In this document: positions 18,334-52,434 of the stretch, piece after piece
How positions within the stretch are numbered: the stretch's first letter is position 1
Layout: each line of letters begins with the position of its first letter
The notes under the pieces: generated by a model
Database searches by the model: none
Told to the model about the DNA's origin: nothing
The model's input: the letters and a program-made list of their open reading frames with translations, nothing else
Position numbers and translations under genes: made by a program
Origin: Mustelus asterias
Lineage: Eukaryota
Direction: 5' to 3'
Assembly (NCBI RefSeq): GCF_964213995.1
Contig: NC_135826.1
Location: 41,850,001 to 41,914,000 of the forward strand
DNA: 64,000 nt

Positions 18334-18512
18334 TCAACAGCTGATCTGTGTAGATGGACTTTTTGAGGAGCTGCTGTTAGGAGTCGAAGACTTTCCCTTT
18401 ATCAAGTCTTTGATCAGCCGTTTGCGAATTAAGCAAATCAGAAGTCCAAACCCCGACAAGCTGGCCAGAGGTACAGAGAGGCCCAGAGTGATAACTTCCT
18501 GCTGAGGTGTCT
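18334..18512 (-). CDS. Exon 8: transmembrane segment and Ser-rich cytoplasmic tail
   Basis: Acceptor tttctctttgtcgttccag| in phase 1. Protein ETPQQE-VITLGLSVPLASLSGFGLLICLI-RKRLIKD...SKSPSTQISC-stop. Confidence 0.88.
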
Positions 18513-21500
18513 CTGGAACGACAAAGAGAAAGTGTTCATTAATCAAACTCCACATCATCACTGGAGAAACATTTGATCCCTTACCCACAGTGAGAGGGAG
18601 CGAGCTCCAATGAAAGGCCCCTCCCATTCCGACACTATAGTTAAGAAAGCCCCACCAATGCCTCTACTTTCTCGGAAGACTAAGTAAATTTGGCATGTCA
18701 GCTACGACTCTCACCAACTTTTACAGATACAATCAGAAAGAATGCTTTCTATGGTGCATCACAGCTTGGTATGGCTCCTGCTCTGCCCAAGACCGCAAGA
18801 AACTACAAAAGATTGTGAATGTAGCCCAATCCATCGCGCAAACCAGCCTCCCATCCATTGACTCTGTCTACACTTCCCGCTGCCTCAGCAAGGCAGCCAG
18901 CATAATTAAGGACCCCCACGCACCCCGGACATTCTCTCTTCCACCTTCTTCCTTCGGGAAAAAGATACAAAAGTCTGAGGTCACGTACCAACCGACTCAA
19001 GAACAGCTTCTTCCCTGCTGCTGTCAGACTTTTGAATGGACTTACCTTGCATTAAGTTGATCTTTCTCTACACCCTAGCTATGACTGTAACACTACATTC
19101 TGCACTCTCTCCTTTCCTTCTCTATGAACGGTATGCTTTGTCTGTACAGTGGGCAAGAAACAGTACTTTTCACTATGTTAATACATGTGACAATAATAAA
19201 TCAAATCAAATCAAAAATCATCTAAACCATTAATCCCTGTTTCCTTCTCTGTACATGCTGCCTGGCCTGCTGAGGAGTTTGCTGTTATGTTATCCACGGT
19301 GACAGTGCAAACGCTTTGAAACAACTCCAACTGCTCCAAAACATTCTGGGATATCCTGAGGTTGTGAAAGGTGCTATGGAAATGCAAACTCTTTCTTGTG
19401 CTTTTTTGTCCTCTCTCTATGTGGCCAGTTGTCCCTGAACTTTTCAAACCCCCATCTCTACATACTCTCCCCCCCGCCTCACTGTACAGAAATCACCATT
19501 TATTGCAACTTTCACTTTAACACTTTGTTCCCCAGAGTGATTGAAATTGTAAACGTTTCTCTCCGTCAGTATTACACCCTTCACACAGTCCGCAGGTTTG
19601 TAATATCCTGCCTTCATCAATCTCAACTAACCTCCGACCCCACACAACCATTGACTTCATTACAGACAAGGGGTGGGATTTTCCAGCCGCGCTCACCCCA
19701 AGACTGGAAAATCCCACCTGAGGTCAAGGGACGTTTGCATGGTCCTACGATTCCCATGGAGGGCGGAATTGGAAAATTCTGCCCAAGGTCTTGTCCCTCA
19801 TTGGGTTTCATAGGCCTTCATTGGGTGGCACAGTGGTTAGCGCTGCTGCCTCACAGCGCCAGGGACCCAGGTTCAATTCCGATCTCGGGTCACCGTCTGT
19901 GTGGAGTTTGCACGTTCTCCCTGTGTCTGTGTGGGTTTCCTCTGGGTGCTCCAGTTTCCTCCCACAGTCCGAAAGATGTCCTGGTTAGGTGGATTGATCG
20001 TGCTAAATTCTCCCTTGGTGTCCCAAGATGTGCAGGTTAAGGGGATTGGTGGGGTAAATATCTGGGGTTACAGGGATAGGGCATGGGTGGGATGCTCTGT
20101 CGGAAAGTTGGTGCAGACTTGATGGGCCGAATGGTCTCCGCTTGCAGTGTAGGGATTCTAAGGTTCATTGGCTGTCTTGAGAGAGTCAGTATGAAAGTCA
20201 TAAACACGTACCTAATACAGTGACCTGAGCTCTCAGTCTCACTTCACCCAGTTCATTCTCCACCACACACTCGTACAGTCCCTGGTCATCCGGTGTCAGA
20301 GAATCGATTCTCAGCTCCGACTTCCCTCGCGAGCTGGAAATGTTCCACCTCCACTGCTTGCTGGGGTCTGTCCTTCCCCAGGTGATGTTGGGTTCAGGGT
20401 TGGCATCTCCTTGGCAGGTTAATGCCAGCGTCTCGCCCGCCCTGGCACTGCCCCCACCGTCAATGGAAACGTTCCGGGGACCGTCTGGAAAATCAGGAAA
20501 CAAATTTCAGCTCATCGGAAAAATCTGCTGTCTTGTATCCTGACTCTCAGCAATTCCCACATGCCCATCACCCTCTGTGCGTTCACTGTACACTGGCTTC
20601 CAATCCATGGAATCCCAACACTGCAGAAAGAGGCCATTCAGCCCATTAAGCCTGCACCAACAAAATTCCTCACCCAGGCCCTATCCCCATAACCCCACGT
20701 ATTTATCCTGCTCGCCCCCTGACACTAAGGGGCAATTTAGCATGGCCAATGCATCTAACCCGCACATCTTTGGACTGTGGGAGGAAACCGGAGCACCCGG
20801 AGGAAACCCACGCTGACACGAGGAGAATGTGCAAACTCCACACAGACAGTGACCTGAGGCCGGAATTGAACCCGGGTCCCTGGCGCTGTGAGGCAGCAGT
20901 GCTAACCACTGTGCCACCACCAAGCAACAGCTTCATTATAAAATTCACATCCTCATGTTTAAATCCCTGTCTGTCTCATCGAGTCACAAAGATTTACAGA
21001 ACAGGAGACCATTCAGCCCGTCATCACTGTTCTGGCTGGCAAACAGTTATCCAGCCTAATCCCATTGTCTAGTTCTTGGTCTGTAGCCCTATCAGTTACA
21101 GTAATTCATGTAGAAATCCAACAATTTAATTAAAGTTAAAGTTTATTTATTACTGTTACAAGTAGGCTTACATTAACACTGCAATGAAGTTATTGTGAAA
21201 ATCCCTCTAGTCGCCACACTCCGGTGCCTGTTCGGGTACACTGAGGGAGAATTTAGCATGGCCAATGCGCCTAACCAGCACGTCTTTCGGACTGTGGGAG
21301 GAAACCGGAGCACCCGGAGGAAACCCACGCAGACACGGGGAGAACGTGCAGACTCCGCACAGACAGTGACCCAAGCCGGGCATCGAACCCGGGTCGCTGG
21401 CGCTGTGAGGCAGCAGTGCTAACCACTGTGCCGCCCACATGAAAAGGGTCTCTGCCTCTAGCACCTTTCACCCTCTGGGAGACACAATCTCCTCGAATCG

Positions 21501-24500
21501 TTGTACCATTTACTTCATATTTTCCACCTGGTTGTTGACTTCTCTGCTAAAGGAAATAAGTACTTCCCCATCCAGACTGGTTATAATTTTATACACCTCA
21601 ATGATCTCACCTTTTCCAAAGTAAACAACCCCAGTCCACCTGAAACAAAAACAGATAATGTTTGAAAATCTCTGCAGGTCTGGCAGCATCTGTGAAGAGA
21701 GAGACAGAGTCAGTCATAGCGACTCAAATTAACTGTCTCTCTCCACAGAAGCTGCCAGACCTGCTGAGGTTTTCCAGCACTTTCTATTTTATTTCACGTT
21801 TCCCACACTCTCAGGATTTTATTTTTGTTTCCCCAGTCTATCTAATTTTTAGATTAAAATTCTCCAGTCCTGGCAACATCCTTGTAAATTTTCTCTCTTC
21901 CCCACTCCAGCACACTTACATCCTTCCTGTGGTGACCAGATCTACACAGTATCCGAGCTGTGTGGCCATATTAGTGCTTCATATCTTTCTAGTGTCACCT
22001 CGGGGCTGGAGGAGGTCACAGAGATAGGGAGGTGGTGTAGGGACTGGAGGAGGTTACAGAGATAGGGAGGGTTGTAGGGGCTGGAGGAGGTTACAGAGAT
22101 AGGGAGGTGGTGTAGGGGCTGGAGGAGGTTACAGAGATAGGGAGGTGGTGTAGGGACTGGAGGAGGTTACAGAGATAGGGAGGTGGTGTAGGGACTGGAG
22201 GAGGTTACAGAGATAGGGAGGTGGTGTAGGGGCTGGAGGAGGTTACAGAGATAGGGAGGGTTGTAGGGGCTGGAGGAGGTTACAGAGATAGGGAGGGTTG
22301 TAGGGGCTAGAGGAGGTTACAGAGATAGGGAGGGTTGTAGGGGCTGGAGGAGGTTACAGAGATAGGGAGGGTTGTAGGGGCTGGGAGAGGTTACAGAGAT
22401 AGGGAGGGTTGTAGGGGCTGGGAGAGGTTACAGAGATAGGGAGGGGTGTAAGGGCTGGAGGAGGTTACAGAGATAGAGAGGAGTGTAGGGGCTGGAAGAG
22501 GTTACAGAGATAGGGAGGCGGTGTAGGGACTGGAGGAGGTTACAAAGATAAGGAGGGTTGTAGGGACTGGAGGAGGTTACAGAAATAGGGAGGGTTGTAA
22601 GGGTGGGAGGAGTTTACAGAGATAGAGAGGAGTGTAGGGGCTGGAGGAGGTTACAGAGATAAGGAGGGTTGTGGGGCAAGAGGAGGTTACAGAGATGGAG
22701 AGAGTTGAAGAGGTTACGGAGATAGGGAGTAGTGTGGAGGCTAGAGGAGGTTACAGAGATAGGGATGGTTGTAGGGGCTGGAGGAGGTTACAGAGATAGG
22801 GAGGAGGTGTAGGGGCTGGAGGAGGTTACAGAGATAGGGAGGGGGTGTAGGGACTGGAGGAGGTTACAGAGATAGGGATGGTTGTAGGGGCTGGAGGAGG
22901 TTACAGAGGTAGGGAGAGTTGTAGGGGCTGGAGAAGGTTAGAGATAGGGAGGGTTGTAGTGTCTCGAGGAGGTTACAAAAATAGGGAGGGGTGTAGCGGC
23001 TCTAGGAGGTTACAGAGGTGGGAGGGTTGCAGGGGCTGGAGGAGATTACAGAGATAGGGAGCGTTATAGGGCCTCGGCGCCAGTGAGAAAATTAAACTGG
23101 CATTAACCTGTCAGATACACCTACCCTAAATCCTACTTCACATTTGTATGTAACTCTTCTTATCTCTGTAACCTCCTCCAGACCCTACACCCCTCCCTAT
23201 CTCTGTAACCTCCTGAAGCCCCAATAACCTCCGTATCATCCTCCAGCCCCTACACCCCTCCCTATCTCTGTAACCTCCTCTAGCCCCTACAACCCTCCCT
23301 ATCTCTATAACCTCTTCCAGCCCCTACAACCCTCCCTATCTCTGTAACCTCCTCCAGCCCCTACAACCCTCCCTATCTCTGTAACCTCCTCCACCCCCTA
23401 CACCCCCTCCCTATCTCTGTAACCTCCTCCACCCCCTACACCCCCTCCCTATCTCTGCAACCTCCTCCAGCTCCTGGAACCCTCTGCGATCTCTGTTCTC
23501 CTTCAATTCCAGCCTCTTGCATATTCCTGGTTCCCAGAATCCCAGCCATAGCTGCTGTTTCTCCAGCTGCCTGGGTTCTAAGCTCTGTTGTTCCCTACCT
23601 AAACCCCTCCACCTTCATTCCTGAGACACTTGTAAAACCTGTCTCTTTGACACTTGTAAAACCTGTCTCTTTGACAAAGATATTGGTTGCCTTTCCCAGT
23701 AACTCTGAGTGGCCGGGAGTCACATTTTGACAGATTATCAACACTTCTCAAACTGAATTTCCCAAAGGTGGGAACTGTCAGTAATTGGATCGAGTTCAGA
23801 CTGAAAATTAAACGACAAAATTCTCTGTTCTGATCAGGATCTGAACCTGATTCTGGCATGGATCACTCCCTGCTGCGTGTTCATTGACTCTCTCCACTGC
23901 ATCCTCACTCCCTCCCTCCTCATCACTTACTCCACACATACATTTGCGGGTCAGAGTGTTACCCTCCTGGTTGAATGTCTCCTCTCAGACTGAGTGTTGT
24001 GAAATCAGCAGACTGGCAAACCCTGTACTGGTCATGTCTATAAAAACCACAGTATCAGGGTTTGAGATAATTCCTGTCCTTGTGGGACTGAGTTAGTCAC
24101 TGCGTCAACTTCTGCTTTTAAACTTTTCTGTGGTTCAATTCTGTGAATTGCATGAAATTTTTAATTATTGCGCAAAGTTACAGATGGGAACACGTCTGTC
24201 TGAGAGTCAGGTTCCAGAAGCTGCTCAGACGCACTCCGAGAGAGAAACACATTTGAATTTAATCAGTCAGCGTCCTGCACAGTCCACACTCAATAACTCT
24301 GTATGAACTTCCAGCCCAGTCCATATTAACTCCATCCACCCCGCATCTAATCTGTATCCACCTCACATCCACTCCCAATCCACAGCCCAGTTACTCCCAA
24401 TCCACAGCCCAGTTACTCCCAATCCACAGCCCAGTTACTCCCAATCCACAGCCCAGTTACTCCCAATCCACAGCCCAGTTACTCCCAATCCACAGCCCAG

Positions 24501-30500: not shown

Positions 30501-33500
30501 CTGGTTTCGAAACTGACCAACCAACCGGGTTAAAATGGACAGGGATTGTTAGAGGATACGGCAAGATATCGATAGGCTGGAGACTTGGGCAGAGAAATGG
30601 CAGATGGAGTTTAATCCAGACAAATGTGAGGTGATGCATTTTGGAAGATCAAATTCAGACGTGAATTATACTGTAAATGGCAGAATCCTTAGGAACATTA
30701 ACATACAGAGGGATCTGGGCGTACAGAACCCCAGCAGGGATCTGTACATAGGGCGGCACTGCTGTCTCACACCGCCAGGGGCCCGGGGTTCGATTCCCGG
30801 CTTGAGTCACTGTCTGTGCGGAGTCTGCACTTTCTCCCTGTGTCTGCGTGGGTTTCCTTCAGGTGCTCCGGTTTCCTCACACAGTCCAAAAGACGTGCTG
30901 GTTAGGTGCATTGGCCATGCTAAATTCTCGCTCGGTGTACCTGAACAAGCGCCAGAGTGTGGCAACTAGGGGATTTTCACAGTAACTTCATTGCAGTGTT
31001 AATGTAAGCCTACTTTACTTGTGACACTAATAAATAAACTTTAAAAGTTACAGGTCCTCGATACCCTGAAAGTGGCAACACAGGTGGTTAAGATAGTCCA
31101 GAAGGCATGTTTGCCTTCATTGGCCGGGGCAGAGTATAAAAGTTGGGAAATCATGTTGCAGCTTTATAAAACCTTGGTTAGGCCGCATTTGGAGTATTGC
31201 GTGCATTTCTGGTCACCACACGACTAGAAGGACGTGGATGCTTTGGAGATAGTGCAAAGAAGGTTCACCAGGGTGTTGCCTGGTCTCGAGGGTGTTGACT
31301 ACGAGGAGAGTTTGGGTAAACTTGAATTATTTTCACTGGAAAGACAAAGGCTGAGGGAAGACCTGATAGAAGTCTACAAAATTATGTGAGGCATAGACAG
31401 GGTGGGCAGAAGCTTTTTCCCAGGGTGGTAGTGTCAGTTACAAGGAGGCACAGGTTTAAGGTGAGGGGGGAAAGTTCAGGGGAGACGTGCAGGGAATGTT
31501 TTTCACACAGAGGGTGGTGGGTGCCTGGAATGCGCTGCTGGAGGTGGTGGTGGAAGCAGGAACATTAACAATGTTCAAGATGCATCTTGATAGACACATG
31601 AATGGGAGGCGAACAGTGGGATAGAAACAGTGTATCGGCACAGGCTTGATGGGCCGAAGGGCCTGTTCCTGTGCGGTATTCTATGCTCTTTTTTTCTGTT
31701 TTTTGGAATAAAAACCATGATGCTGCACAGGTATTCGGTCCACAATACAAACCGTTCTGTCACAGATGGCTTGTACAACAATAACTTACTGCAGTGGGTG
31801 CAGTTTTAAGTCCCGGTTTTCACTGAGCACGAGATATTTCTGCAATTTGTCCAAGATCTCACGCTGTCATAACTTTCAGATTACTATTAGAGATCATGTT
31901 CAAAGAGCCAACACCACAGACACAGCGGGCTGAATGGCCTCCTGTGGTGTATAATTTTATGATTCTATGCAGGTCAAGAGCTTCATGTTTTTAGGTGTCC
32001 AGGTCACCAACAGCCTGTTCTGGTCCCCCCCATGCCGACACTATAGTTAAGAAAGCCCACCAACGCCTCTACTTTCTCAAAAGACTAAGGAAATTTGGCA
32101 TGTCAGCTACGACTCTCACCAACTTTGACAGACGCACCATAGAAAGCATTCTTTCTGGTTGTATCACAGCTTGGTATGGCTCCTGCTCTGCCCAAGACCG
32201 CAAAGAACTACAAAAGGTTGTGAATGTAGCCCAATCCATCACGCAAACCAGCCTCCCATCCATTGACTCTGTCTACACTTCCCGTTGCCTCGGCAAAGCA
32301 GCCAGCATAATTAAGGACCCCACACACCCCGGACATTCTCTCTTCCACCTTCTTCCTTCGGGTAAAAGATACAAAAGTCTGAGGTCACATACCAACCGAC
32401 TCAAGAACAGCTTCTTCCCTGCTGCTGTCAGACTTTTGAATGGACTTACCTTGCACTAAGTTGATCTTTCTCTACACCCTAGCTATGACTGTAACACTAC
32501 ATTCTGCATTCTCTCGTTTCCTTCTCTGTGAATGGTATGCTTTGTCTGTATAACACGCAAGAAACAATACTTTTCACTGTATGTTAATACATGTGACAAT
32601 AATAAATCAAATCAAATTAAAAGACTCTTCATCGGAACGGTGTGAATCCCTACCTGTGTGTAAAACACATTCTCTTGGCTTTATGAAGCCCGCTTTATAA
32701 TCTCGAAGTGTATATAACAGAGATACTCACACTCCACAGCCACCTGAGCTCTCAGTCTCACTTCACCCAGTTCATTCTCCACCACACACTCGTACAGTCC
32801 CTGGTCATCCGGTGTCAGAGAATCGATTCTCAGCTCCGACTTCCCTCGCGAGCTGGAAATGTTCCACCTCCGCTGCTTGCTGGGGTCTGTCCTTCCCCAG
32901 GTGATGTTGGGTTCAGGGTTGGCATCTCCTTGGCAGGTTAATGCCAGCGTCTCGCTCTCCCTGGCACTGCCCCCACCGTCAATGGAAACGTTCCGGGGAC
33001 CGTCTGGAAAATCAGGAAACAAACCTTAGCTCATCATAAAATCCTGCTGTATTGACTACCTGGGGAACAGGGAATCAGAGATAGGGGCATTTAAAAAGGA
33101 AGGTTCTGGAGCTTGTTAGTTAACCTTACTCACATGGAACAAGAGAAGATATGAGGAATGATAAAACCCCCTTAACCGTAACCATATGGTGGGATGGGAT
33201 ATAAAGGAAGACGTAATGGGAGCTTGTTAGAAAGTGTAATAACACAGGAAACCCGACTAGATAGGAACATCATTTATTGACAGAATGGAAAGTAAAGCCA
33301 CATCCACAGTGTACACACACAATTGTCCCTGCCTGGGACTACAGTTCAGCAGGCCCAGTCCCAGGCCTGCCTTATAAAAGGCCCAGGTAATGAGTTTCTT
33401 TTAAAGTTTAATAAATTAGTCACAAGTTAGGCTTGCATTAACACTGCAATGAAGTTACTGTGAAAATCCCCTAGTCGCCACACTCCGGCGCCTGTTCGGG

Positions 33501-36500
33501 TACATTGAGGGGTAATTGAGCACAGCCAATGCACCCTAACCAGCACGCCTTTTGGGCTGTGGGAGGAAACCCACGCAGACACAGGGAGAACGTGCAAACT
33601 CCACACAGAGAGTGACCCAAGCCGGGAATCGAACCCGAATTCCTGGCAAGAATGCTAACCCACTGTGTTGCCCCAGCTGGGCAGGTCACTGCCTGTTATC
33701 AGGGGACCTCATACTCAACAAGCCCCAGAGGGAGGTCAATCAGTGATTCCCCATGGACATTGTGGCGGTTATCAAACTGCCAACATCTTCCCCCTACACC
33801 GAGTGTGAGGGTCTCCCCTCACTCCCATGCCGATGGCGACTTCTCTGTCTCTTCTCTTTGGCATCCTTTCCATTGTTGGGGTCTGGTCGAGGTGGGGAAG
33901 TGGGGGGGGGGGGGTAACGGATTGGGAAACATCTCTTTCCTGCAGAGCGCTGAAGAGCCACTGTGGAGGGCTTTCCTTAGTGGCGACTCGGACTGGGTTT
34001 CTGCCGCCTCTGTCATATCGGAACCAGAATCATCAGCATCCGGAGGCTGGCTCTTGGTGTTATTGAGTGTGGAATGTCCTGACCGCAGGCCAGAGTAAGG
34101 GACACCGACGTAATGGTAGAACCCGCTGCCTCTGTGGAGGGTTCCCTGTGACGGAGATGATCGATGTGTTTTTTGGAAGGTCTTCTCTCTACTTTGTACC
34201 CGATATGACACCGCTCTAGTTTTTTTTTCCAAGAATCATTCTGGAATCCACAGAGAGCCGTCACCAAAATTCCTCATGTGGACCATAACTCCCGGCCCGA
34301 AGACTGTAACCGGTCTGTGAGCATCGTGGGCCCCTTTTCTGGGCTTCTCCTTTCAACCAAACTTCTCTGCCCAAATTTGGGAACATCAGTTTAAGCCTAG
34401 TCCAAACCTGTCAGCCATCAATAGCTTCACCAGGGCTATTCCTGTCGTCAAAAGGACATGGGTCAGGAAGCAGGAGAGGGGATTCACAAAGTCTCCTGTC
34501 ACTAATGAGACTGAAATCTAATTAATACATGAAATAAGAACACCTTTACGATGTACTTTGAAACACAGAATTTCTTAGTTATATTGTATACTATACGATG
34601 ATCTATAATATCTGAATTTTAGCAATCATACTAATTACAATGCTGAAGTTTAAAGTTTTATTAGTGTCACAAGTAAGGCTTACATTAACACTGCAAGGAA
34701 GTTACTGTGAAAATCTCCTAGTCGCCACACTCTGGCGCCTGTTCGGGTCAACGCACCTAACCAGCACGTCTTTCAGATTGTGGGGGGAAACTGGAGCACC
34801 CGGAGGAAACCCACGCAGATATGGGGAGAACATGCAGACTCCACACAGACAGTGACCCAAGTCAGGAATCGAACCCGGGTCCCTGGTGCTGTGAGGCTGC
34901 AGTGCTAACCACTGTGCCAGCGTGCCGCCCGCAATGTTACTAATGCTGCATGGTTGGTGGTTTTTTATTGGTCACGGGTCACGTACATTTTCAAATGTTA
35001 AAACAGGGTCATGTTGGAACATCTTTTGGGAACCACTGCCCCAAGGAGACGCCCACATAATGTTAGCAACTCCAGGTAAGTGTCAGGGAGAATTCAGTAA
35101 AAAACCCCCAAGTGATTGATTCTATTCTGTTGCGTTGGCTGCAAAAGGAACCTGTTATTCTGGAAATCCTACAAGAAAACGTTGAAAAGGAGTTGGGCCT
35201 TTGCCTCAGTAATCAAGCTGTGTCGTTTGGTAACCGATATGTCTGTTCAATTCTAATTCCTGGGGCAAAGCCCGCCCACATATTCTCTCCAAGAAAAATC
35301 CAATTTCCTGTTTAAAGACATTGATGCGACAACTGCAATGCATCGTCCCTTTCTGGAGGACTGAGGGTTCCCTTCACTCCTCACTGGGAGGGCCCTGTAA
35401 GCAAAATGGATTATCCAGTCATCCGGAATGTTAAAAAGGACATTGGATAAATATTCGTAAAGGAGAATATTTGTATGGCTTTGAGGAAAGGCAGAGGAAG
35501 TGGATCTAATTGGACGGTTCTTTCAAAGAGGCAGCACAGGCACAGTGGGCTGAATAGCCTCCTTTCGCATTGTAATGCTCGCTATTTCTAAACAGAGTCT
35601 TTATTGGAATGGAGTAAACCCCCATTTGTGTGTTAGCCTGTGTGTAAAACACATTCTCTTGGCTTTATGAAGCCCCCTTTATAATCTCGAAGTGTATATA
35701 ACAGAGATACTCACACTCCACAGCCACCTGAGCTCTCAGTCTCACTTCACCCAGTTCATTCTCCACCACACACTCGTACAGTCCCTGGTCATCAGGTGTC
35801 AGAGAATCGATTCTCAGCTCCGACTTCCCTCGCGAGCTGGAAATGTTCCACCTCCGCTGCTTGCTGGGGTCTGTCCTTCCCCAGGTGATGTTGGGTTCAG
35901 GGTTGGCATCTCCTTGGCAGGTTAATGCCAGCGTCTCGCTCTCCCTGGCACTGCCCCCACCATCAATGGAAACGTTCCGGGGACCGTCTGGAAAATCAGG
36001 AAACAAACCTTAGCTCATTGGAAAGCCCTGCTGTCACGTATCCTAGTGATGGCCTCATGGTATTATCGCTAGACTATTAATCCAGAAACTCAGCTCATGT
36101 TCTGGGGACCCGGGGTTCGAATCCCGCCACGGCAGATGTTGGAATTTGAATTCAATAAAAAATATCTGGAATTAAGAATCTACTGATGACCATGAAACCA
36201 TTGTCGATTGTCGGAAAAACCTATCTGGGTCACTAATGTCCTTTCGGGAAGGAAATCTGCTGTCCTTACCTGGTCTGGCCTACATATGACTCCAGAGCCA
36301 CAGCAATGTAGTTGACTCTCAACTGCCCTCATGCAACTAGGGATGGACAGTAAATGCTGGCCAGCCAGCGACGCCCATGTCCCACAAATGAATATTAAAA
36401 AGTCCTGACTCACAGCATTTCCCACATGCCCAGCACCCACCGGCTCCTAACTCTGTTTCCCTTTGAAACTCGATCAAGGGCCTGTAAAAAAAGAAAAGTC

Positions 36501-39500
36501 GATTTTTAATCCCTATATGCACCAAGGGTCCCCAACCCTCCAGGTTTGTCCTTGAGTCTCCAGGATTTAAAGTTTAAATTCTGAAATACTGTCACTAACT
36601 GCCTTTGAATGATTTATTAAAGATGGGAAACCTGGGGATGAATCCTCCGGGAAAGCGCTCCAGCAGAATTGCCGAGACTCAGTAAGTACCGGGGAGAATT
36701 CAGTAACCACAACCCTCGGTGCTCGATGCTGCTCTGTGGCATCGGCTGCAAAGAAAACCTCTTGTTCCAGAAACCTGACAGGAAAGCATCAACTGGAGTC
36801 TGCCATTCGGCCCAGCAGCAACTCAGCTCCGCCATCTTGTGGCAGGAGGGTCAGCTCGATTCCAATTCCTGGGCTTCCCCATCCAGTGGCACGGTGGTCA
36901 GCACCACTGCCTCACAGCGCCAGGGACCTGGGTTCGACTCCCGGATTGGGTCACTGTCTGTGTGGAGTTTGCACGTTCTCCCCGTGTCTGTGTGGGTTTC
37001 CTCTGGGTGCTCCGGTTTCCTCCCACACTCTAAAGATGTGCAGGTTAGGTAGATTGGCCATGCTAAATTGCCCCTTCGTATCCCAAGATGTGGGGGTTAG
37101 GGGGATTAGCCATACAAAATGTGTGGGGTTAGAGGAATAGGGCCTGGTTGGGATGCTTTGTCAGAGGGTCAGTGCTGACTCGATGGACAGAATGGCCTGC
37201 ATCTGCACTATAGAGATTCTATGATAGAACATAGAACATAGAACAGTACAGCACAGAACAGGCCCTTCGGCCCACGATGTTGTGCCGACCTTCATCTGAA
37301 ACCAAGATCAAGCTATCCCACTCCCTACCATCCTGGTGTGCTCCATGTGCCTATCCAATAACCGCTTAAATGTTCCTAAAGTGTCTGACTCCACTATCAC
37401 TGCAGGCAGTCCATTCCACACCCCAACCACTCTCTGCGTGAAGAACCTACCTCTGATATCCTTCCTATATCTCCCACCATGAACCCTATAGTTATGCCCC
37501 CTTGTAATAGCTCCATCCACCCGAGGAAATAGTCTTTGAACGTTCACTCGATCTATCCCCTTCATCATTTTATAAACCTCTATTAAATCTCCCCTCAATC
37601 TCCTCCGCTCCAGAGAGAACAGCCCCAGCTCCCTCAACCTTTCCTCATAAGACCGACACTCCAAACCAGGCAGCATCCTGGTAAATCTCCTCTGCACTCT
37701 CTCCAGCGCTTCCACATCCTTCTTATAGTGAGGTGACCAGAACTGCACGCAATATTCCAAATGCGGTCTCACCAAGGTCCTGTACAGTTGCAGCATAACC
37801 CCACGGCTCTTAAACTCCAACCCCCTGTTAATAAAAGCTAACACACTATATGCCTTCTTCACAGCTCTATCCACTTGAGTGGCAACCTTTAGAGATCTGT
37901 GGATATGGACCCCAAGATCTCTCTGTTCCTCCCGTCTTCAGAACCCTACCTTTGACCCTGTAATCCACATTTAAATTTGTCCTACCAAAATGAATCACCT
38001 CACATTTATCAGGGTTAAACTCCATTTGCCATTTTTCAGCCCAGCTTTGTATCCTATCTATGTCTCTTTGCAGCCTACAACAGCCCTCCACCTCATCCAC
38101 TACTCCACCAATCTTGGTGTCATCAGCAAATTTACTGATCCACCCTTCAGCCCCCTCCTCTAAGTCATTAATAAAAATCACAAAGAGCAGAGGACCAAGC
38201 ACCGATCCCTGCGGCACTCCGCTAGCAACCTGCCTCCAGTCCGAAAATTTTCCATCCACCACCACCCTCTGTCTTCGATCAGATAGCCAGTTACCTATCC
38301 AATCGGCCAACTTTCCCTCTATCCCACACCTCCTTACTTTCATCATAAGCCGACCATGGGGGACCTTATCAAACGCCTTACTAAAATCCATGTATATGAC
38401 ATCAACCGCCCTACCTTCATCAACACACCTAGTTACCTCCTCAAAAAATTCAATCAAATTTGATAATATCATAGAATCCCTACTGTGCAAAGGGAGGCCA
38501 TCCGGCCATTGAGCCTGCACTGGCAACATTCCCACCCAGGCCCTATCCCCATAACCCCATGTATTTAACCTGCCAATCCCCCTGACACTAAGGGTCAATT
38601 TAGCATGGCCAATCCACCTAACCCGCACATAGAAACATAAAAGATAGGAGCAACAGGAGGCCATTCAGCCCTTCGAGCCTGCTCCGCCATTCATCACAAT
38701 CATGGCTGATCGTCCAACTCAACAGCCTAATCCTGCTTTCTCCCCATAACCTTTAATCCCATTCACCCCAAGTGCTATATTTAGCCGCCTCTTGAATACA
38801 TTCAATGTATTGGCAGCAACTATTTCCTGTCGTAATGAATTCCACAGACTCACCACCCTGGGTGAAGAAATGTCTCCTAATCTCCGTCCTAAATAGTCTA
38901 CCCTGTATCCTCAGACTGTGACCCCTGATTCTGGACACCGTCGGGAACATCCTTCCTACGTCTACCCTGTCTTGTCCTCTTTGGATATCCTCTCCTTCTA
39001 AGAAAATTTCCACTTAAGCACATTGATTGATTCTAAGTCTGCAATGCAGTGTCCCTTTAAGGAGTGCGGAGGATGTAATATAGTGCGCAGTGTGCCCACA
39101 TTCCACCCTGGCAGGGGGGTGGGGAGGGGGGGGGGGGGGGCACTGCACTCCAAATCGGTGAGAGCGCCTTGCAGGAGTAACTTTCAAACTGGAATTGGAT
39201 AAATACCAAGGACTGTTTGGGAAGCAAAGGGGCTAATTGGATCTCTCTCTCAAAGGGCTGGCATTGGTACAATGGGCTGAATGGCCTGCTTCCGTTATTT
39301 TCTGATGAGATAGAGACACTCACACCAAATAACTACTGAACTCTGGTGTTGGGTGCTGTTTATGCCATTGCTGATATCACAAGTGTAAACTCCTCCATCC
39401 TGAGGTTCCAGCTCGTTAATATACAGCGTGGAATGGCCACTTCCCCGGGTGATGTTCCAGTGGGATGGCCTCCTACGTCCTGAGTCAGCTTTCCTCCAGG

Positions 39501-42500
39501 TGATGGCAGGGACCGGGTCACCCGCTCCACTGCACCGTATTGACAGCGGCTGTCCTGTTTGTTTCACTGTGTGAGTTGGTTCAATCCGGGTGTTGTAGAG
39601 TCCAGCTAGATTTAACAGAAAGTATTTCAATTAGGACTCACGACAGAGACACAATTAAAAACTCAGAGACACTCTGAAATGAGAGAATTCATAAAGAACA
39701 TTTAAAATACTCTCATTATCACAAAACCTTTTTAATGAGGGAATCCCATTGTTAGGGATCTACTTAAACAAAGGAATCTCACTATTAGGGATAAGAACAT
39801 AAGAACTAGGAGCAGGAGTAGGCCATCTGGCCCCTCGAGCCTGTTCCGCCATTCAATAAGATCATGGCTGATCTTTTCGTGGACTCAGTTCCACTTACCC
39901 ACCCGCTTGCCCTTCGTTCCTTTACTGTTCAAAAATCTATCTTTGCCTTAAAAACATTCAATGAGGTAGCCTCAACTGCTTCACTGGGCAGGGAATTCCA
40001 CAGATTCACAACCCTTTGTGTGAAGAAGTTCCTCCTCAACTCAGTCCTAAATCTGCTCCCCCTTATTTTGAGGCCATTCCCCCTAGTTCTAGTTTCACCC
40101 GCCAGTGGAAACAACTTCCTTAATTCGACCTTATCTATTTAGATCTATTTAAATGAGAGAATCTCACTATTGGGGATCTATTTTAAAGAACTCATAATCC
40201 AAAGGCCCAGACTTATGCTCTGGGGACCCAGGTTCAAATCCCACCACAGCAACTGGTGAAATTTAAATTCAATTAATAGATCTGGGATTATAAAAGCCAG
40301 TCTCAGTATTGGTGACCCTGACAACTATCATCAATTGTTGGAAAAACCCATCTGGTTCACTAATGTCCTTTAGGGAAGGAAATCTGCCGTCCTTACCTGG
40401 TCTGGCCTACATGTGACTCCAGAGCCACAGCAATGTGGTTGATTTTTAACTTCCCTCTGCGCTCTGAAGTGGATTTGCGAGCCCAGGGTCAATTAGGGAT
40501 GGAGGACATGAAAGTATAAAATAAAAATCTCCTTTGCACAACTCCCAAGGCGTTGCCATCCTTCCTGAAGTGTGGTGTCCACAGTTGGACACAATACTTT
40601 ATCAAATCATTCATACGCCTTTAAAAGCTCAAACTAGATATTTGGATTATATAGAAACAGGACATTCAGCCCAACTACTCTGCTGATATTTATGCTCCAC
40701 ATGAACCTCCTCCCATTCCAGCTGCCCCGTCTCAACCTTTCAATATATCTTTCTAATTGCGTGGCATGGTGGCACAATGGTTAGCACTGCTGCCTCACAG
40801 CGCCAGGGACCCGGGTTCAATTCCAGCCTCGGGTCACTGTCTGTGCGGACTCCGCACATTCTCCCCGTGTCTGCGTGGGTTTCCTCCAGGGGCTCCAGTT
40901 TCCTCCCACAGTCCAAAAATGTACAGGTTTGGCCATGCTAAATTGCCCCTTTGTGTCCCAAGATGTGTAGATTAGGGAAATTGGCATGATAAATGTGTTG
41001 GGTTACTGGGATATGGTGGGGGGAGGGGGGCCTGGGTAAGATGCTCTGTCGGTGCAAACACGATGGGCTGAATGGCCTCTTCTGCACTGTAAGGATTCTA
41101 CGATAATCCTTTTCTCAATCTAATGAGAAGTCCTTGGCAGGTCGGATCAAGGAAAACCGCAAGGCTTTTTACTCTTATGTAGTGAGAGACGACATAGGCT
41201 CTAAGGAGCAAAACGTGGAATCGTTGTGGGTGGAGATAAGGAATAGTAGGGGGAGAAAGACACTGGTAGGTGTGGTCTATAGGCCCCCAAATAATAACCT
41301 AGAGGTGGGGAGGGCTATAAACAAGCAAATAATGGATGCGTGCAAAAGTGGAACGGCAATAATCATGGGGGATTTTAACCTACATATTGATTGGTCGACT
41401 CAAATTGGACGTGGAGGGCTTGAGGAAGAGTTCTTGGAATGCTGTCGGGATTGTTTCATTGAACAGTATGTTACAGAACCTACGAGAGAGCGAGCTATCT
41501 TGGATCTGGTTCTGTGCAATGAGACAGGTAGGATTAAGGATCTTCTTGTGAAGGATCCTCTTGGGATGAGTGATCATAATATGGTGGAATTTCTGATACA
41601 GATGGAGGGTGAGAAAGTAGGGTCCCAAACCAGTGTCCTCTGCTTGAACAGAGGGGAGTACGATAGGATGAGGGTGGAATTGGCTAATGTAGACTGGGCG
41701 AGCAGACTGGTAGGTAGGACAGCTGAGGAACAGTGGAGGATTTTCAAGGAGATTTTTTTAAGTACTCAGCAAAAATATATTCCAGTGATAAAGGACTGTA
41801 AGAAAAAGGATAACCGGACGTGGATAACGAAGGAAATAAAGGAGAGTATTAAAATAAAATCAGATGCGTACAGAGTGGCCAAAAATAGTGGAGAATTAGT
41901 GGATTGGGAAAGCTTTAAAGAAAAACAAAGAACGACTAAGAAAGCGATTAAGAAAGGAAAGACAGATTATGAAACTAAACTAGCTCAAAATATAAAAAAT
42001 GATAGTAAAAGTTTTTACAAGTATATAAAAAGGAATAGAGTGGCTAGAGTGAATGTTGGACCCTTGGAAGATGAGAGGGGGGATTTAATAGTGGAAAACG
42101 AGGAAATGGCTGAGACTTTAAATAAGTTCTTTGTGTCGGTCTTCACGGTGGAAGACACAAATAGTTTGCCGAATATTAGAGATCGAGAGTTGGTGGGAGG
42201 TGAGGTCCTTAATACAATTACTGTTACTAAGGAGGTGGTGCTTGGTAGACTAAAAGGACTGAAGGTAGACAAGTCCCCGGGCCCGGATGGAATGCATCCC
42301 AGGGTACTGAAAGAAATGGCTGAGGTAATAGCAGATGTGTTAGTAGTAATTTATCAAAATTCGCTGGACTCTGGGGTAGTGCCGGCTGACTGGAAAACAG
42401 CTACTGTTACGCCGCTGTTTAAAAAAGGAAGTAGACAAAAGGCGGGTAACTACAGGCCGGTTAGCTTAATGTCGGTAGTTGGGAAGATGCTAGAGTCCAT

Positions 42501-48500: not shown

Positions 48501-51500
48501 GGTAAATGTTAAGCTAGTTCATTTGTTGTAGTTAAACTGTGTTAAATAAAGTTTATTTTGATAAAAGCTTCCCAGTTTGTCAGTAGAATCGCGCCTGGAA
48601 TGAAACATCTTATCCTCACATTAATGCCAAAATAACAAACAGTTGGGGTCTAGTCTAACTTCATAATTACTTTGGGATTTCTGATTTCATACCCTGACAC
48701 TAACTTAATTTTTTTGAGGAAGTAACAAGGAGGATTGATGGGGTTAGTCCAATGGTTGCTGTTTACATGGGGTTCAGGAAGACCATTGACAAGGTGCCTT
48801 ATGGTAGAATGATCAGAAAGGTGAGATCCCATTGGATACAGGGGAAAGTGGCGAGTTGGAACCAGTATTGGTTCAGTGACAGGAAACAAAGGGTAACAGT
48901 TGATGGATATTTTTATGGGTGGAAAATGGTTTCCAGTGGTGTCCCACAGGGCTCAGTGTTGAGATCCTTGCTATTGTTGCATATATTAATGATTTAAGTT
49001 TTATTTATTAGTGTCGCAAGTAGGCTTACATTAACACTGCAATGAAGTTACTGTGAAAATCACCTAGTCGCCACACTCCGGCGCCTGTTCGGTTACACAG
49101 AGGGTGAATTTAGCATGGCCAATGCACCCTAACCTGCCTGTCTTTTGGACTGTGGGAGGAAACCAGAGCACCCGGAGGAAACCCACACAGACACAGGGAG
49201 AACGTGCAAACTCCGCACAGACAGCGATCCAAGCCGGGAATCGAACCCAGGTCCCTGGCGCTGTGAAGCAGCAGTGCTGATCACTTTAAACTAAAATGTG
49301 AGTGGCGTGATTGGAAAATTAGCAGATGACACAAAATGTTGCCATGTAGTTTATAGTGAAGAGGACAGCTGTCAACTCCAGAATAATATCAATGGTCTGG
49401 TTGAGTGGACAGAGAAATGGCAAATGGAATTCAATCTGGAAAAGTGTGAGGTGATGCATTTGGGAAGGGCAAATAAAGCAAGGGAATTCTCAACAAACGG
49501 GAAGATATTGAGAGGGGTTGAGGAAGCGAGAGTGCATGTCCACAGGTCCCTGAAGGTGGCAGGACAGGTGGACAAGGTGGTTAAGATAGCATTTGGAACA
49601 CTTTCCTTTATTGGGCGAGATATTCAATACAAAAATCAGGGAAGGAATGATGGAACTGTATAAAACACCGGTTATGCCACAATGGAATTTTTGTGCATAA
49701 TTCTGGACACCACCTAACAGGAAGGACATAACTGCTCTGGAGAGAGTGCAGAGGAGATTTACAAGAATGTTGCCAGGGCTTTAAATTTTCAGCAATGGGG
49801 AGAGATTGGATAGACTAGGGTTGTTTTCCTTAGACAGAGGAGGCTGGAGGGTGACCTGAGGTGTACAAAATTATGAGCGACTGAGAAAGGGTAGACAGGA
49901 AAGACTTGCTACTGTTAACTGAGGGGTCAGTTACCAGGGTACATAAGAGTTAAAATGATTGGTAGAAGGATGAGAAGGGACAAGAGGAGAAACTTTCTCA
50001 CCCAGAGGATGGTGGGTGTCTGCAATTCACTGCCTGAATTAGTGTTTGAGGCTGAAACACTCAACTCATTGAATAGGTTCCTGCGTCTGCATCTTAATTG
50101 TTGGAACATGCAAGGCGATGGACCAGGTGCTGAAAAATGAGATTAAAATGAGCGGCTAGTTTCTTTTCTCTCTTCTTTGGCTGTTGCAAACATGATGGGC
50201 TGAATGGCCTCTTTCTACACAGTAATTTTTCTATGATTGTTTTTATTTCAGATCTCCAGCAGCCATTCTATTTTCTGTTTGTCTCTCGGTCTCTATCTGC
50301 CTTTTTGCTTCATCTCGTGTGTGTGTTTTTCTCTGTGTGACTCATAGCTTTGCATAATGATATATAATGGGGGGCACGTAGAACAGGGAACAAATAGCAC
50401 AGGTGAGAATGTAACAAGCCAAGACAAATTTCTGCCCGAGACACACTGCTTTGATGTTTCTCTCTCATTTACTGACCTCTCTGTCACTTACAGTAAACTG
50501 CGAGAAAGACCTTGCTCTTGAAGAATTTTCCTTCACACTTGATGATGCACGTGTATTCATCCTCGTATATATCCAGCACCTTGTTGATTTGTAAAACCGA
50601 CTTTGAACTGGAAGAAGTCACTTTTCCGGGTGTTGAGTCAATGGTTTTCTCCCACCTTGGTTGACCACTTTGGCAGGAAGACTCACACATCAGCTCCACT
50701 CTCTCACCAATCCTTACAACAGGAACTTTCGGGGTAATGAGTAGAACCTCTTCTTTCCCTGTCACAAGAACTGGCGAACAAAGAATATATTGAGTTAGTC
50801 AATAAACCACAGGGTTCTACAAAAATGTCACTGGGGTGTTTGACGGGAGTGCAGAGGAAGCTCAACACTATAGGTACTGCAGGGCGGCACGGTGGCACTG
50901 TGGTTAGCACTGCTGCCTCACAGTGCCAGGGACCCAGGTTCATTCCCTGCTTCGGTCATTGTCTGTGCGGAGTCTGCACATTCTCCCCGTGTCTGCGTGG
51001 GTTTCCTCCGGGCGCTCCAGTTTCTTCCCACAGTCCAAACGATGTGTTGGTTAGTTAGGCGCATTGGCTATGCTAAATTGTCCCTTAGTGTATCCGAACA
51101 GGCGCTCGATTGTGGTGACTAGGGAATTTTCACAGCAACTTCATTGCAGTGTTAATATAAGCCTACTTGTGACTAATAACTAAATAAACATTAAACTCTT
51201 GTTGGTTTGGGTTCACTCGGGTTTATTTTCTCGCATTTAGCTTGTGCTTATTTATCAGAAAATCTAACCCACTGAACCAAAGAAGGTTCAAACTCAGGGC
51301 TGGGGGGCAGTGGTCATTCATGGCACCATGCCTATGCAAGTGTTTGCTAGACTATTCTCAAACTGGTCCCACTGCCCTGCTCTCCAGGTGATACAGTAAG
51401 AAGTTTAACAACACCAGGTTAAAGTCCAACAGGTTTATTTGGTAGCAAAAGCCACACAAGCTTTTGGAGCTCTAAGCCCCTTCTTCAGGTAACTCACCTG

Positions 51501-52434
51501 AAGGGGCTTGGAACTCCGAAAGCTTGTGTGGCTTTTGCTACCAAATAAACCTGTTGGACTTTAACCTGGTGTTGTTAAACTTCTTACTGTGTTCACCCCA
51601 GTCCAACGCCGGCATCTCCACATCATGGTCCCCAGGTGATAGAACAAAGAAGAAAGAAAAGTACAGCACAGGAACAGACCCTTTGGCCCTCCAAGCCTGC
51701 GCCGATCATGATGGCTACCTAAACTAAAACTGTACGCACTTAGAGTCAGTATCCTTCCATTCCCATCCTATTCATGTATTTGTCTCGTTGCCCCTAAAAT
51801 GACGCTATCCTATTGTTACAAATAATCTAACTTTCCTTTGAAAGTAGCAATGGTCTCTACCTCAAGGACTTGCTGAATCTAATCATTCCATTCTCCAAAA
51901 ATAGTACCTCTGTAAATACACTTTCTATAACCGCTAGCCTCCACCTCTGTGAGTTTTAGATTGGTGATCCTCTCATTGTTGACTCTCTAATTAGTAGAAA
52001 CCCATTCTCCCTCAAAACTCTTGATATATATTTTTTAAAAACCTGTATTAGAAGATTTCCTTCCAACTCAAAGTGCTCGAGTGGAAATAGCCCCTCTATC
52101 TCCAGTCTCCTCAATGCTCAATTCCTCCATTCCTGGTAGCATCCCTGTGAATTTACACTGTTCTCAAAACATGCAGATACCAAAGCTGTGATCAATGTTT
52201 TATTGAATTATGGTACATATTTGCACCTGAACATCTCCCAGTAAAAACTACAATTCAAACACATTTTTCTCAAGTTTCTCACAATTAAATCACCAAAGTT
52301 ACCTTTAAGTTTATAAGTACAGGTTTTGTCCACAAATATTTAGGTTGAGATTTCAAATCGTAAAATAAATAATACCTACCAAGAATCTGGATGAGTACAA
52401 ATAAAGTAAAAATTGGGGAAGAGATTTTTCTCAT
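18334..52434 (-). CDS. Spliced VCAM-1/MAdCAM-1-like Ig-superfamily adhesion molecule, 8 coding exons (52434-52380, 50770-50492, 46074-45751, 39605-39324, 35987-35715, 33003-32731, 20484-20212, 18512-18334), 645 aa, 6 Ig domains
   Basis: All seven introns are GT..AG and phase 1, and the joined frame is open from ATG to TGA. Signal peptide, 4-Cys D1 with IDS motif, D1/D2 junction YSFP (VCAM-1 has YSFP), TM followed by RKR. Orthology to VCAM1 versus MADCAM1 cannot be settled from sequence alone. Confidence 0.88.
18628..19213 (+). mobile_element. Rex1/Babar-type LINE 3' end
   Basis: CITAWYGSCSAQDRKKLQ; aataaatcaaatcaaa tail; same family as 31972-32618. Confidence 0.85.
19670..19784. mobile_element. 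Short MITE-like element
   Basis: Imperfect terminal inverted repeats gggtgggattttcc ... ggaaaattctgccc. Confidence 0.5.
19823..21437. mobile_element. Three HE1-type SINEs flanking exon 7 (19823-20160 plus, 20610-20920 minus, 21130-21437 minus with alternative tail)
   Basis: Recognisable head and central domain in each; the span also contains exon 7. Confidence 0.85.
20212..20484 (-). CDS. Exon 7: Ig domain 4, copy c (membrane-proximal)
   Basis: Same acceptor; donor G|GTACGT. Versus copy b it has 3 internal substitutions (ES>AG, R>W) and a different last 11 nt (VTVL versus VAVE). Confidence 0.9.
21999..23480. repeat. 31-33-bp purine-rich tandem array (21999-23070) followed by an inverted array of the same unit (23150-23480)
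   Basis: Unit ggggctggaggaggttacagagatagggagggttgta and its reverse complement. Confidence 0.92.
24370..24793 (+). repeat. 22-bp minisatellite, about 19 near-perfect copies
   Basis: Unit cacagcccagttactcccaatc. Confidence 0.95.
24794..25028 (+). mobile_element. Solo LTR (235 bp)
   Basis: TGTAAT...ATTACA inverted ends, internal AATAAA, flanked by actcc/cctcc. Confidence 0.75.
25121..25822. mobile_element. Two HE1-type SINEs, tail to tail (25121-25425 plus with alternative tail; 25500-25822 minus)
   Basis: Head and central domain in both. Confidence 0.85.
26076..27026. mobile_element. Penelope element with inverted arms and a GIY-YIG fragment, inserted in a Deu-domain SINE (about 25870-27140)
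   Basis: TMQTLRQRMNEHR motif; about 300-bp inverted arms; imperfect TSD tggct(g)aca(t/c)gtgac; hammerhead motifs at 26128-26162 (minus) and 26904-26938 (plus). Confidence 0.85.
27232..29230. mobile_element. Young Penelope-like element as a 2-kb inverted duplication; GIY-YIG endonuclease C-terminal ORFs 27350-28243 (minus) and 28191-28889 (plus)
   Basis: CKTC...NVVYLIRC...WYIGETMQTLRQRMNEHR...GLN. Arms 27232-28196 and 28238-29203 are nearly identical; 13-bp TSD catttggtgtaaa. Confidence 0.95.
29099..29135 (+). ncRNA. Minimal hammerhead ribozyme in the Penelope terminus (mirror copy about 27299-27335, minus)
   Basis: CAC-CTGAAGA-A-GGGGC-ttaga-GCCTC-GAAA-GC-TT-GTG. Confidence 0.7.
29545..31690. 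mobile_element. SINE/CR1 cluster: HE1 29545-29818 (minus), decayed CR1 30550-31690 (plus) interrupted by HE1 30750-31045 (plus)
   Basis: MEFNPDKCEVMHFGR plus CR1 tail; SINE central domains. Confidence 0.8.
31972..32618 (+). mobile_element. Rex1/Babar-type LINE 3' end
   Basis: ORF 31995-32459 ending RLKNSFFPAAVRLLN. Confidence 0.88.
32731..33003 (-). CDS. Exon 6: Ig domain 4, copy b (protein identical to copy a)
   Basis: Same splice sites as copy a; only 2 synonymous differences in 273 nt. Confidence 0.88.
33215..34490 (-). mobile_element. Decayed Gypsy-like LTR retrotransposon 3' portion (LTR split by a SINE at 33405-33670)
   Basis: LTR-like segment with minus-strand AATAAA, an adjacent purine tract (gtagggggaaga) and degenerate post-integrase-like sequence. 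Confidence 0.45.
34645..34930 (-). mobile_element. HE1-type SINE (alternative tail)
   Basis: Head, central domain and taataaaactttaaac tail. Confidence 0.85.
35715..35987 (-). CDS. Exon 5: Ig domain 4, copy a (I-set)
   Basis: Acceptor cctgattttccag|, donor T|GTGAGT. Protein GPRNVSI...LTCQGDANPEPNITW...DDQGLYECVVEN. Confidence 0.9.
36045..36401 (+). mobile_element. Deu-domain SINE (SacSINE1-like); related copies near 40190-40500, 56150-56450, 58600-59110 and 6590-6720
   Basis: Core ggaaggaaatctgc.gtccttacctggtctggcctaca..tgactccagagccacagcaatg; flanked by tcct on both sides. Confidence 0.75.
36887..37223 (+). mobile_element. HE1-type SINE
   Basis: Head, central domain and tail. Confidence 0.85.
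37224..38462 (-). mobile_element. Young CR1 LINE 3' part (same subfamily as 43844-45630)
   Basis: RT motifs DFSKAFDKVPH, GVPQGSVLGPLLF, FADD; one frameshift. Confidence 0.92.
39324..39605 (-). CDS. Exon 4: Ig domain 3 (I-set)
   Basis: Acceptor tttctgttaaatctag|, donor T|GTGAGT. Protein has IRCSGAGDPVPAITW...LYINELEPQDGGVYTC. Confidence 0.92.
39790..40140 (-). mobile_element. CR1 LINE 3' end
   Basis: RTELRRNFFTQRVVNLWNSLP plus tail. Confidence 0.88.
40760..41103 (+). mobile_element. HE1-type SINE
   Basis: Head, central domain and tail. Confidence 0.85.
41122..45630 (+). mobile_element. Host CR1 LINE (41122-41180 plus 43844-45630)
   Basis: The rejoined frame reads KENRKAFYSYV|RNKRMTR; RT motifs; tctaat at both outer ends. 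Confidence 0.9.
41181..43843 (+). mobile_element. CR1 LINE (partial APE endonuclease plus RT) nested in another CR1
   Basis: VYRPP, GDFN, LDLVL, SDHN, NYRPVSL, FADD; premature stop at 43240-43242; tcttatgt on both sides. Confidence 0.93.
45751..46074 (-). CDS. Exon 3: Ig domain 2 (I2/C2-type)
   Basis: Acceptor tttctttctttcag|, donor A|GTGAGT. Protein SFPHNPMVEL...TLVCLGRDLYP..IDVLWY...FTCEIQL. Confidence 0.92.
46287..46660. mobile_element. Penelope inverted insertion with hammerhead motifs (46346-46380 minus, 46531-46565 plus)
   Basis: Inverted arms; 10-bp TSD tgttcctgtg (46277-46286 and 46661-46670). Confidence 0.85.
46827..50240 (+). mobile_element. Old CR1 LINE fragmented by a younger CR1 end (about 46965-47415), a solo LTR and SINEs (48995-49285 minus)
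   Basis: Successive RT motifs KSPGPDG, QHGF, GVPQGSVL, ADDTK, MEFN are collinear across the insertions. Confidence 0.75.
47621..48699 (+). mobile_element. Solo LTR containing an HE1 SINE (47709-48045)
   Basis: TG...CA ends; ctaat/ctaac TSD; splits the host CR1 motif SCLTN|LI.FFEEVT. Confidence 0.75.
50492..50770 (-). CDS. Exon 2: Ig domain 1 (integrin-binding, ICAM/VCAM/MAdCAM D1 type)
   Basis: Branch-like GACTAAC, acceptor ttctttgttcgccag|, donor T|GTAAGT. Protein has MCESSC...RWEKTIDSTPGKV...YTCIIKC (two CxxxC pairs). An alternative in-phase acceptor lies 12 nt downstream. Confidence 0.92.
50881..51190 (+). mobile_element. HE1-type SINE (alternative tail)
   Basis: Head, central domain and tail. 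Confidence 0.85.
51394..51627. mobile_element. Penelope hairpin insertion
   Basis: About 100-bp inverted arms; TSD ccaggtgata (51384-51393 and 51632-51641); degenerate hammerhead cores. Confidence 0.85.
52380..52434 (-). CDS. Exon 1: signal peptide MRKISSPIFTLFVLIQIL(V)
   Basis: ATG with A at -3 (acaagATG), basic N-region plus hydrophobic core, phase-1 donor G|GTAGGT. Joins in frame to LVTG|KEE of exon 2. Confidence 0.85.

Follow-up and report, generated by a model that had tools for sequence, protein, structure and literature searches.

What is a gene resembling VCAM1 doing on a chromosome other than that of VCAM1? This question is raised by a 64,000-nucleotide (nt) stretch of the Mustelus asterias genome (contig NC_135826.1, positions 41,850,001 to 41,914,000; hereafter the window), which holds on its minus strand a gene whose predicted product joins one VCAM/MAdCAM-type head, the immunoglobulin (Ig) domains D1 and D2, to a stalk of I-set domains, D3 and three copies of D4. 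A sequence-only reading of the window had taken this window gene for a possible cartilaginous-fish paralogue with a third, independent way of extending the reach of an alpha4-integrin ligand. We consider it reasonably probable, instead, that the gene arose as the sister of VCAM1 in a whole-genome duplication and is the likely orthologue of MADCAM1, its stalk being made of Ig domains and that of the mammalian protein of mucin.

Gene model and family membership

The window gene was rebuilt as eight exons (1938 nt, 645 amino acids (aa), no internal stops) in the order D1-D2-D3-(D4)x3-TM (transmembrane) between 52434 and 18334 (Table 1), with all seven introns in phase 1 and bounded by GT..AG, and with an AATAAA ~1.06 kb downstream of exon 8, at 17271. 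Pfam recognises Ig domains for D1 to D4 and has no match to the TM exon. The protein is predicted to carry a signal peptide, a single TM helix, a short tail and 15 N-glycosylation sequons, 14 of them extracellular and 11 within D3-D4. Because database proteins of other sharks repeat the identical domain set in identical order, the model is not a product of chance. As judged from its sequence, the gene is intact and its predicted product is a type I membrane adhesion protein of the VCAM-1 kind, and both the open, all-phase-1 model of the sequence-only reading and its three D4 copies, each with NVS, NIT and NIS, were recovered on rebuilding.

By sequence, the head resembles that of the VCAM/MAdCAM alpha4-integrin ligands. 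D1 has the Cys of two disulfides (47, 51, 93 and 97) and a CD-loop Asp, within TIDST, that aligns in the PDB search with the integrin-binding Asp of both VCAM-1 and MAdCAM-1, the only proteins matched at E<=0.01 (1e-5 and 1.5e-3, respectively; eight of eight rows). This Asp is retained in all six family members that have a D1, from chimaera to sturgeon. The D1-D2 unit as a whole is nearest to VCAM-1 and MAdCAM-1 in sequence and in fold, the fold being that of the chimaera orthologue rather than of the window protein: its AlphaFold model (predicted local distance difference test score 74) ranks VCAM-1 first (Z 16.3, root-mean-square deviation 4.2, 183 residues aligned), with Z 13.9 for MAdCAM-1 (deviation 3.2, 179 aligned) and Z 13.8 for ICAM-2. 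Foldseek with the four-domain model returned generic multi-Ig chains, and an Atlas search with the sturgeon D1-D2 generic Ig clusters only.

Relatives were sought by a HMMER scan with the basking shark protein, of which the best 150 of 6428 matches were taken and 12 examined for high identity or N-terminal coverage; 18 proteins were traced to their names, all but one of which came from these matches. Among the matches listed are proteins of sevengill shark, bamboo sharks, chimaera and sturgeon, and a lungfish fragment. Of 34 candidates in a D2 homologue search, four proteins were kept, and white and basking shark account for three of these, all orthologues; a D1 search kept none of 92. The clear orthologues (37-72% identity to the model) are all chondrichthyan, from five other sharks and the chimaera; orthologues in sturgeon and lungfish appear likely from their sequences, the lungfish record having no D1-D2 and being assigned by its stalk. 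We place in this family the database models XP_041059806.1, XP_078412253-5.1, XP_067824635.1, XP_043576685.1, XP_072450486.1, XP_007897028, XP_058870260.1, XP_058870962/3.1 and XP_043911348.1. Automatic names of relatives range from VCAM1-like to hemicentin-2-like, contactin-like, CEACAM5-like and Schwann cell myelin protein.

Relation to VCAM1, the ICAMs and MADCAM1

The window gene is not the VCAM1 of its own genome. Canonical VCAM1 lies on another chromosome (C8:75138656-75143861, ~5 kb) and encodes VCAM-type D1, D2 and D3, three related I-set exons (two near-identical), a terminal domain, a TM segment and a KGSY-type tail. Before it (75.14 Mb) come an MFSD14-type exon (74.70 Mb; the name is our presumption, Pfam giving only a weak MFS_1 match) and CDC14 (74.93 Mb), an order, MFSD14-CDC14-VCAM1, that we take to be that of human 1p21. 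The place of VCAM1 in the MFSD14A-CDC14A block is held by this C8 gene, and the window family forms a clade of its own. The D1-D2 phylogeny foreseen by the sequence-only reading was run with VCAM1 and the ICAMs (17 rows, none of them a tetrapod MAdCAM-1) and yields three groups: the window family with sturgeon (support 88/90; 92), VCAM1 (86/83; 84) and, with the window family outside it, ICAM (100). Forcing the chondrichthyan members of the window family together with chondrichthyan VCAM1 is rejected by the approximately unbiased (AU) test, with p-AU 0.018 for D1-D2 and 4.5e-6 when two stalk domains are added. That the gene is a paralogue distinct from VCAM1 is thus borne out by locus and trees alike. 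The sturgeon speaks less clearly for our reading, being a long branch that the AU test also allows to join VCAM1 (p-AU 0.10 and 0.069). Two findings independently support its place in the window family. The five best matches of its protein in the M. asterias genome are exons of the window gene, D1 included, and the sturgeon and lungfish stalks side with the window family against VCAM1 stalks with support 99, in a 44-row stalk-domain tree that includes five of the 15 skate domains and one of the two sturgeon proteins.

Comparison with the two better-known families highlights similarities and differences. VCAM-1 is the best PDB match of D1 and, among two-domain heads, of the D1-D2 profile, and it also ranks first in fold. 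The window gene shares with it the four-Cys D1, the CD-loop Asp, one phase-1 exon per domain and an I-set stalk. It differs in a D1 one residue shorter at two loops, additional Cys in D2, stalk domains that form their own clade, the lack of a second head and a locus separate from the KGSY-tailed C8 gene. The D2 of chondrichthyan orthologues has in common an extra Cys pair, and the odd Cys160 is found elsewhere only in white and basking sharks. With the ICAM family the gene shares an ICAM_N-like D1 (a weak Pfam match); unlike it, it stands outside the ICAM clade (100) and the C19 cluster, and shark and ray ICAM D1 have no W-x4-D loop. That cluster (C19:7.45-7.78 Mb) comprises at least seven ICAM-type D1 exons and near-identical D2 exons. 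Another ICAM_N match, at C8:86.77 Mb, was rejected as a candidate, being a lone Ig exon with no D2 or stalk within 40 kb.

What points to MADCAM1 is the chromosome of the window gene, C26. The gene is found immediately downstream of a third gene of the MFSD14 type (76% identity to the C8 copy), and this pairing of MFSD14 with a VCAM-type gene mirrors the C8 block, which points to large-scale duplication. Also on C26 are, by Pfam, POLRMT, POLR2E and a SHIPPO-repeat gene, together with BSG-, HCN2- and ARHGAP45-like exons (some of these names being presumptive). Human MADCAM1 lies among these markers at 19p13.3, and by this map C26 is the homologous chromosome. The 800 kb scanned around the 19p13.3-type markers (C26:22.27-22.87 and 26.42-26.62 Mb) showed no VCAM/MAdCAM-like exon, with the BSG Ig exons as positive control. 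The likely orthology to MADCAM1 rests on this chromosome-level synteny because the trees had no tetrapod MAdCAM-1, a profile search having given 10 proteins of 3815 with none of that kind among them. MAdCAM-1 is the second-best match of D1, which aligns to it without the two one-residue gaps required against VCAM-1 (Cys-x3-Cys and Asp-x3-Gly), and the sturgeon D1 loop reads GLDA where human MAdCAM-1 has GLDT. The bit scores for MAdCAM-1/VCAM-1 are 45/89 with the window-family profile and 37/176 with the VCAM1 profile, so that MAdCAM-1 fares relatively better with the former, a comparison that is not strictly matched since the first profile also holds stalk positions.

Several observations weigh against MADCAM1 orthology. 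Synteny, a check named in the sequence-only reading, showed no local link to the direct human neighbours of MADCAM1. The gene's own neighbours are arrestin-domain and PGPEP1-like genes (the arrestin exon returned generic arrestin only in an Atlas search), 15-19 Mb from the 19p13.3-type markers; the gene adjoins neither BSG nor the SHIPPO-repeat gene, which is 15 Mb away and has no Ig gene beside it; and CDC34, TPGS1 and SHC2 were not located, CDC34 being absent among 60 UQ_con matches and from short-motif searches. The scan covered ~1.2 of the 50.4 Mb of C26 (~2%), and genome searches were insensitive, one missing the D1 of both the window gene and VCAM1 and another recovering only its own query; Pfam C2-set and Adhes-Ig_like searches matched nothing anywhere in the genome and are uninformative. 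In sequence, aligning D1 to MAdCAM-1 needs other gaps around the Trp, and Cys-x3-Cys is also found in ICAMs, so it may be ancestral. Absolute likeness is greater to human VCAM-1 than to MAdCAM-1 (89 vs 45 bits; Z 16.3 vs 13.9), and the best 60 matches of the sturgeon protein include VCAM-1 (46 bits) and ICAM-5 (50 bits) and no MAdCAM-1. Finally, the window protein has four I-set domains in place of a mucin stretch, and its D2 lacks the acidic DE loop, a place at which the sturgeon reads EESADD; this loop of MAdCAM-1 is what sets alpha4beta7 preference (PMC6080939). Table 2 of PMC7916592 lists MADCAM1 for terrestrial vertebrates only, and the titles and abstracts searched, which take in few subscription papers, contain no account of this gene family or of a fish MAdCAM-1; the fish family may already be linked to MADCAM1 in annotation tables or through the orthology calls of Ensembl/NCBI. 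As a separate observation, a sialomucin-like gene with a Thr/Ser-rich exon, a TM exon and a short tail lies ~180 kb downstream (C26:41.682-41.689 Mb, minus strand), with no Pfam match and no Ig exon found.

Many of these points would also suit an ancient VCAM1 sister ("VCAM2") that cartilaginous fish, sturgeon and lungfish retained and amniotes lost, with MADCAM1 of separate origin and the protein an alpha4beta1 ligand like VCAM-1. In its favour are the greater likeness to human VCAM-1 than to MAdCAM-1 by profile and fold, the lack of both mucin and an acidic D2 loop, the lack of local synteny with the direct human neighbours of MADCAM1 and the fact that beta7 was not identified among the loci examined. 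However, it calls for an additional origin, or else for a pair of VCAM-type genes on the same ancestral chromosome, and no other VCAM-type gene was seen near the 19p13.3-type markers in the 800 kb scanned, while fast evolution of mammalian MAdCAM-1 could account for its lower scores. We regard it as a serious but rather unlikely alternative to MADCAM1 orthology.

Stalk design and the D4 copies

Between D4a and D4b there are 2 differences in 273 nt, both silent; D4c departs from the former at 12 nt and from the latter at 10, 7 of these within the last 11 nt. An assembly or duplicated-haplotype artefact was rejected as the source of D4a/b because the flanking introns differ, and the window contains no N: the introns ahead of the copies measure 3336, 2711 and 12246 nt and, interspersed repeats aside, the copies resemble one another over only ~50 nt of upstream flank, and D4a/b also over 78 nt of downstream flank. 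In the stalk-domain tree D4 copies group by species or genus, being 92-100% identical within species and 68-86% between genera. Internal copies terminate in Val-Glu, with Tyr next, throughout the lineages compared, and the last copy ends differently in M. asterias, white shark and basking shark. We infer that D4 was duplicated once long ago, that gene conversion confined to the exons then acted on the copies and that a third copy arose recently, repeated independent duplication being a possible alternative. The donor sites after D3 (39324) and the internal D4 copies (35715/32731) match at 11 of 13 nt and have the phase-1 T in common, unlike that of the last copy, a likeness that may point to unequal crossover between the ends of D3 and D4 as their origin.

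The gene could be real and yet have a main product other than the 645-aa form, through D4 skipping, or serve as a non-integrin spacer, decoy or homophilic adhesion molecule, both of which we think improbable. Basking shark database isoforms lack D4b (X2) or D3 (X3), the motif around the D1 Asp is loosely conserved (the residue ahead of it being I, M, R, T or L, which also tells against our own reading), and the odd D2 Cys could form a covalent dimer. However, every D4 exon has an open frame and intact splice sites, D4a and D4b differ only silently, and the Asp itself is invariant from chimaera to sturgeon.

Counting stalk domains and D4 exons across species, a check raised by the sequence-only reading, shows that their number varies by lineage. 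Within the window gene family, the chimaera has two stalk domains (D3-D4), the sevengill shark three ((D3)x2-D4), white, basking and bamboo sharks three (D3-(D4)x2) and M. asterias four (D3-(D4)x3), while the sturgeon proteins have D1-D2 plus 5 and 9; the two sturgeon genes lie on different contigs. The repeated stalk is real but ordinary, VCAM1 being built likewise: the C8 VCAM1 also has one head and tandem I-set repeats, with five stalk domains, and skate VCAM1 has 15. The architecture can consequently not be called unusual, nor are six Ig domains longer than human VCAM-1, which has seven. The layout is probably not confined to cartilaginous fish, since the sturgeon proteins and lungfish fragment likely belong to the same family; orthologues with such a layout elsewhere among jawed vertebrates were what the sequence-only reading had named as refuting it. 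The design of one head on an I-set stalk looks ancestral, on these sequences, and less like a third invention. The first proposal, a VCAM1 duplicate specific to cartilaginous fish with a stalk-lengthening method of its own, fits the wholly chondrichthyan set of clear orthologues and the three D4 copies seen only in this genome, but is largely refuted, and to us highly improbable, given the AU test, the sturgeon and lungfish stalks and the tandem-stalked VCAM1 of M. asterias and skate. What endures of the sequence-only reading is an intact VCAM/MAdCAM-type gene, distinct from VCAM1 and informative about VCAM/MAdCAM origins; what finds no support is the unique, shark-only third design.

Mobile elements and other repeats surround these exons. 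CR1 long interspersed nuclear element material, including a near-intact second open reading frame (ORF2), occupies window positions 41107-43746, 37232-38462 and 44398-45631, two pieces of it, 97% identical and inverted, flanking the D3 exon on both sides. Intron 6 holds Penelope-like endonuclease fragments (26000-29200; this name, like CR1, is presumptive) and minisatellites of 37 bp and 22 bp (22002-23496 and 24371-24793), the 37-bp array having an inverted partner. Elsewhere on C26 are a retroviral env-like fragment (42.078 Mb) and the gag-pol frame of a long-terminal-repeat retrotransposon (41.824-41.826 Mb).

Table 1. Exons of the window gene, in order of transcription (positions in the window)
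Feature	Position	Strand	Basis
Exon 1: start codon and predicted signal peptide (aa 1-18)	52380..52434	-	Rebuilt model; hydrophobic peak aa 3-23; alike N-termini in two database shark proteins
Exon 2, D1: VCAM/MAdCAM-type head with predicted integrin-binding site	50492..50770	-	Pfam (weak ICAM_N, I-set); PDB
Exon 3, D2: C1/C2-type Ig domain, five Cys, no acidic loop	45751..46074	-	Pfam, alignment
Exon 4, D3: first I-set stalk domain, 31% identity to D4	39324..39605	-	Pfam, alignment
Exon 5, D4a: I-set stalk repeat with NVS/NIT/NIS	35715..35987	-	Rebuilt model, Pfam
Exon 6, D4b: protein identical to D4a, 2 silent differences	32731..33003	-	Rebuilt model
Exon 7, D4c: final stalk repeat (95% identity) with a distinct 3' end and donor site	20212..20484	-	Rebuilt model
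Exon 8: predicted TM helix (~aa 594-616), basic stop-transfer stretch, short Ser-rich tail, stop codon	18334..18512	-	Rebuilt model

Proposed function and significance

By analogy with its relatives, the window protein may act as follows. Asp40 of VCAM-1 and Asp42 of MAdCAM-1 coordinate the metal site of the integrin beta subunit, and D2 sets integrin preference (PMC6080939). The D1 CD-loop Asp would likewise complete that site, with an alpha4-type integrin bound, and D2 would set the preference. The four glycosylated I-set domains could serve as a spacer in place of the mucin that holds mammalian MAdCAM-1 upright (PMC7767916); such a stalk would set reach, tuned by exon gain, loss and skipping, its D4 copies being homogenised by gene conversion. 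The mammalian mucin stalk would then have replaced an older Ig stalk. Expression is presumably on endothelium or stroma. Four of 18 RNA runs placed on the D2 exon region covered only a repeat (D2 exon 0/4), which says nothing either way on expression; in immunised nurse sharks a VCAM1-annotated plasma protein, whichever the paralogue, rises (PMC9207270).

The partner in M. asterias might be alpha4beta1 sooner than alpha4beta7, because beta1 and beta2 were identified and beta7 was not. The genome has ~9 beta-integrin loci (31 matches of 44 candidates). Three exons compared with the PDB are beta2, beta1 and beta1-like, and a fourth is by eye a degraded beta1-like copy; that beta7 was not identified among the 4 of ~9 loci examined is a further point against MADCAM1 orthology. 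ITGB7 is listed for zebrafish and frog (PMC4030831). An atypical beta1-like integrin with a changed metal-site motif lies beside ITGB1 (C2:35.43-35.45 Mb), and the degraded copy, with a stop, is at C9:134.83 Mb.

By itself the repeated stalk is of little import, since VCAM1 has the like; the main point is the likely identity of the gene as an Ig-stalked fish MAdCAM-1. We see about an even chance that MAdCAM-1 is as old as jawed vertebrates, with VCAM1, MADCAM1 and the ICAMs genome-duplication sisters on separate shark paralogous chromosomes, that the fish form was overlooked under hemicentin-like names for its accordion-like, gene-converted Ig stalk, and that the mucin and selectin-binding role are a later tetrapod replacement. 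If the gene is the MADCAM1 orthologue, one spacer type, tandem Ig exons, would have been exchanged for another, mucin, the lineage of the gut-homing ligand would reach back to the first jawed vertebrates, and sharks, sturgeon and lungfish would have a named candidate for tissue-specific lymphocyte homing.

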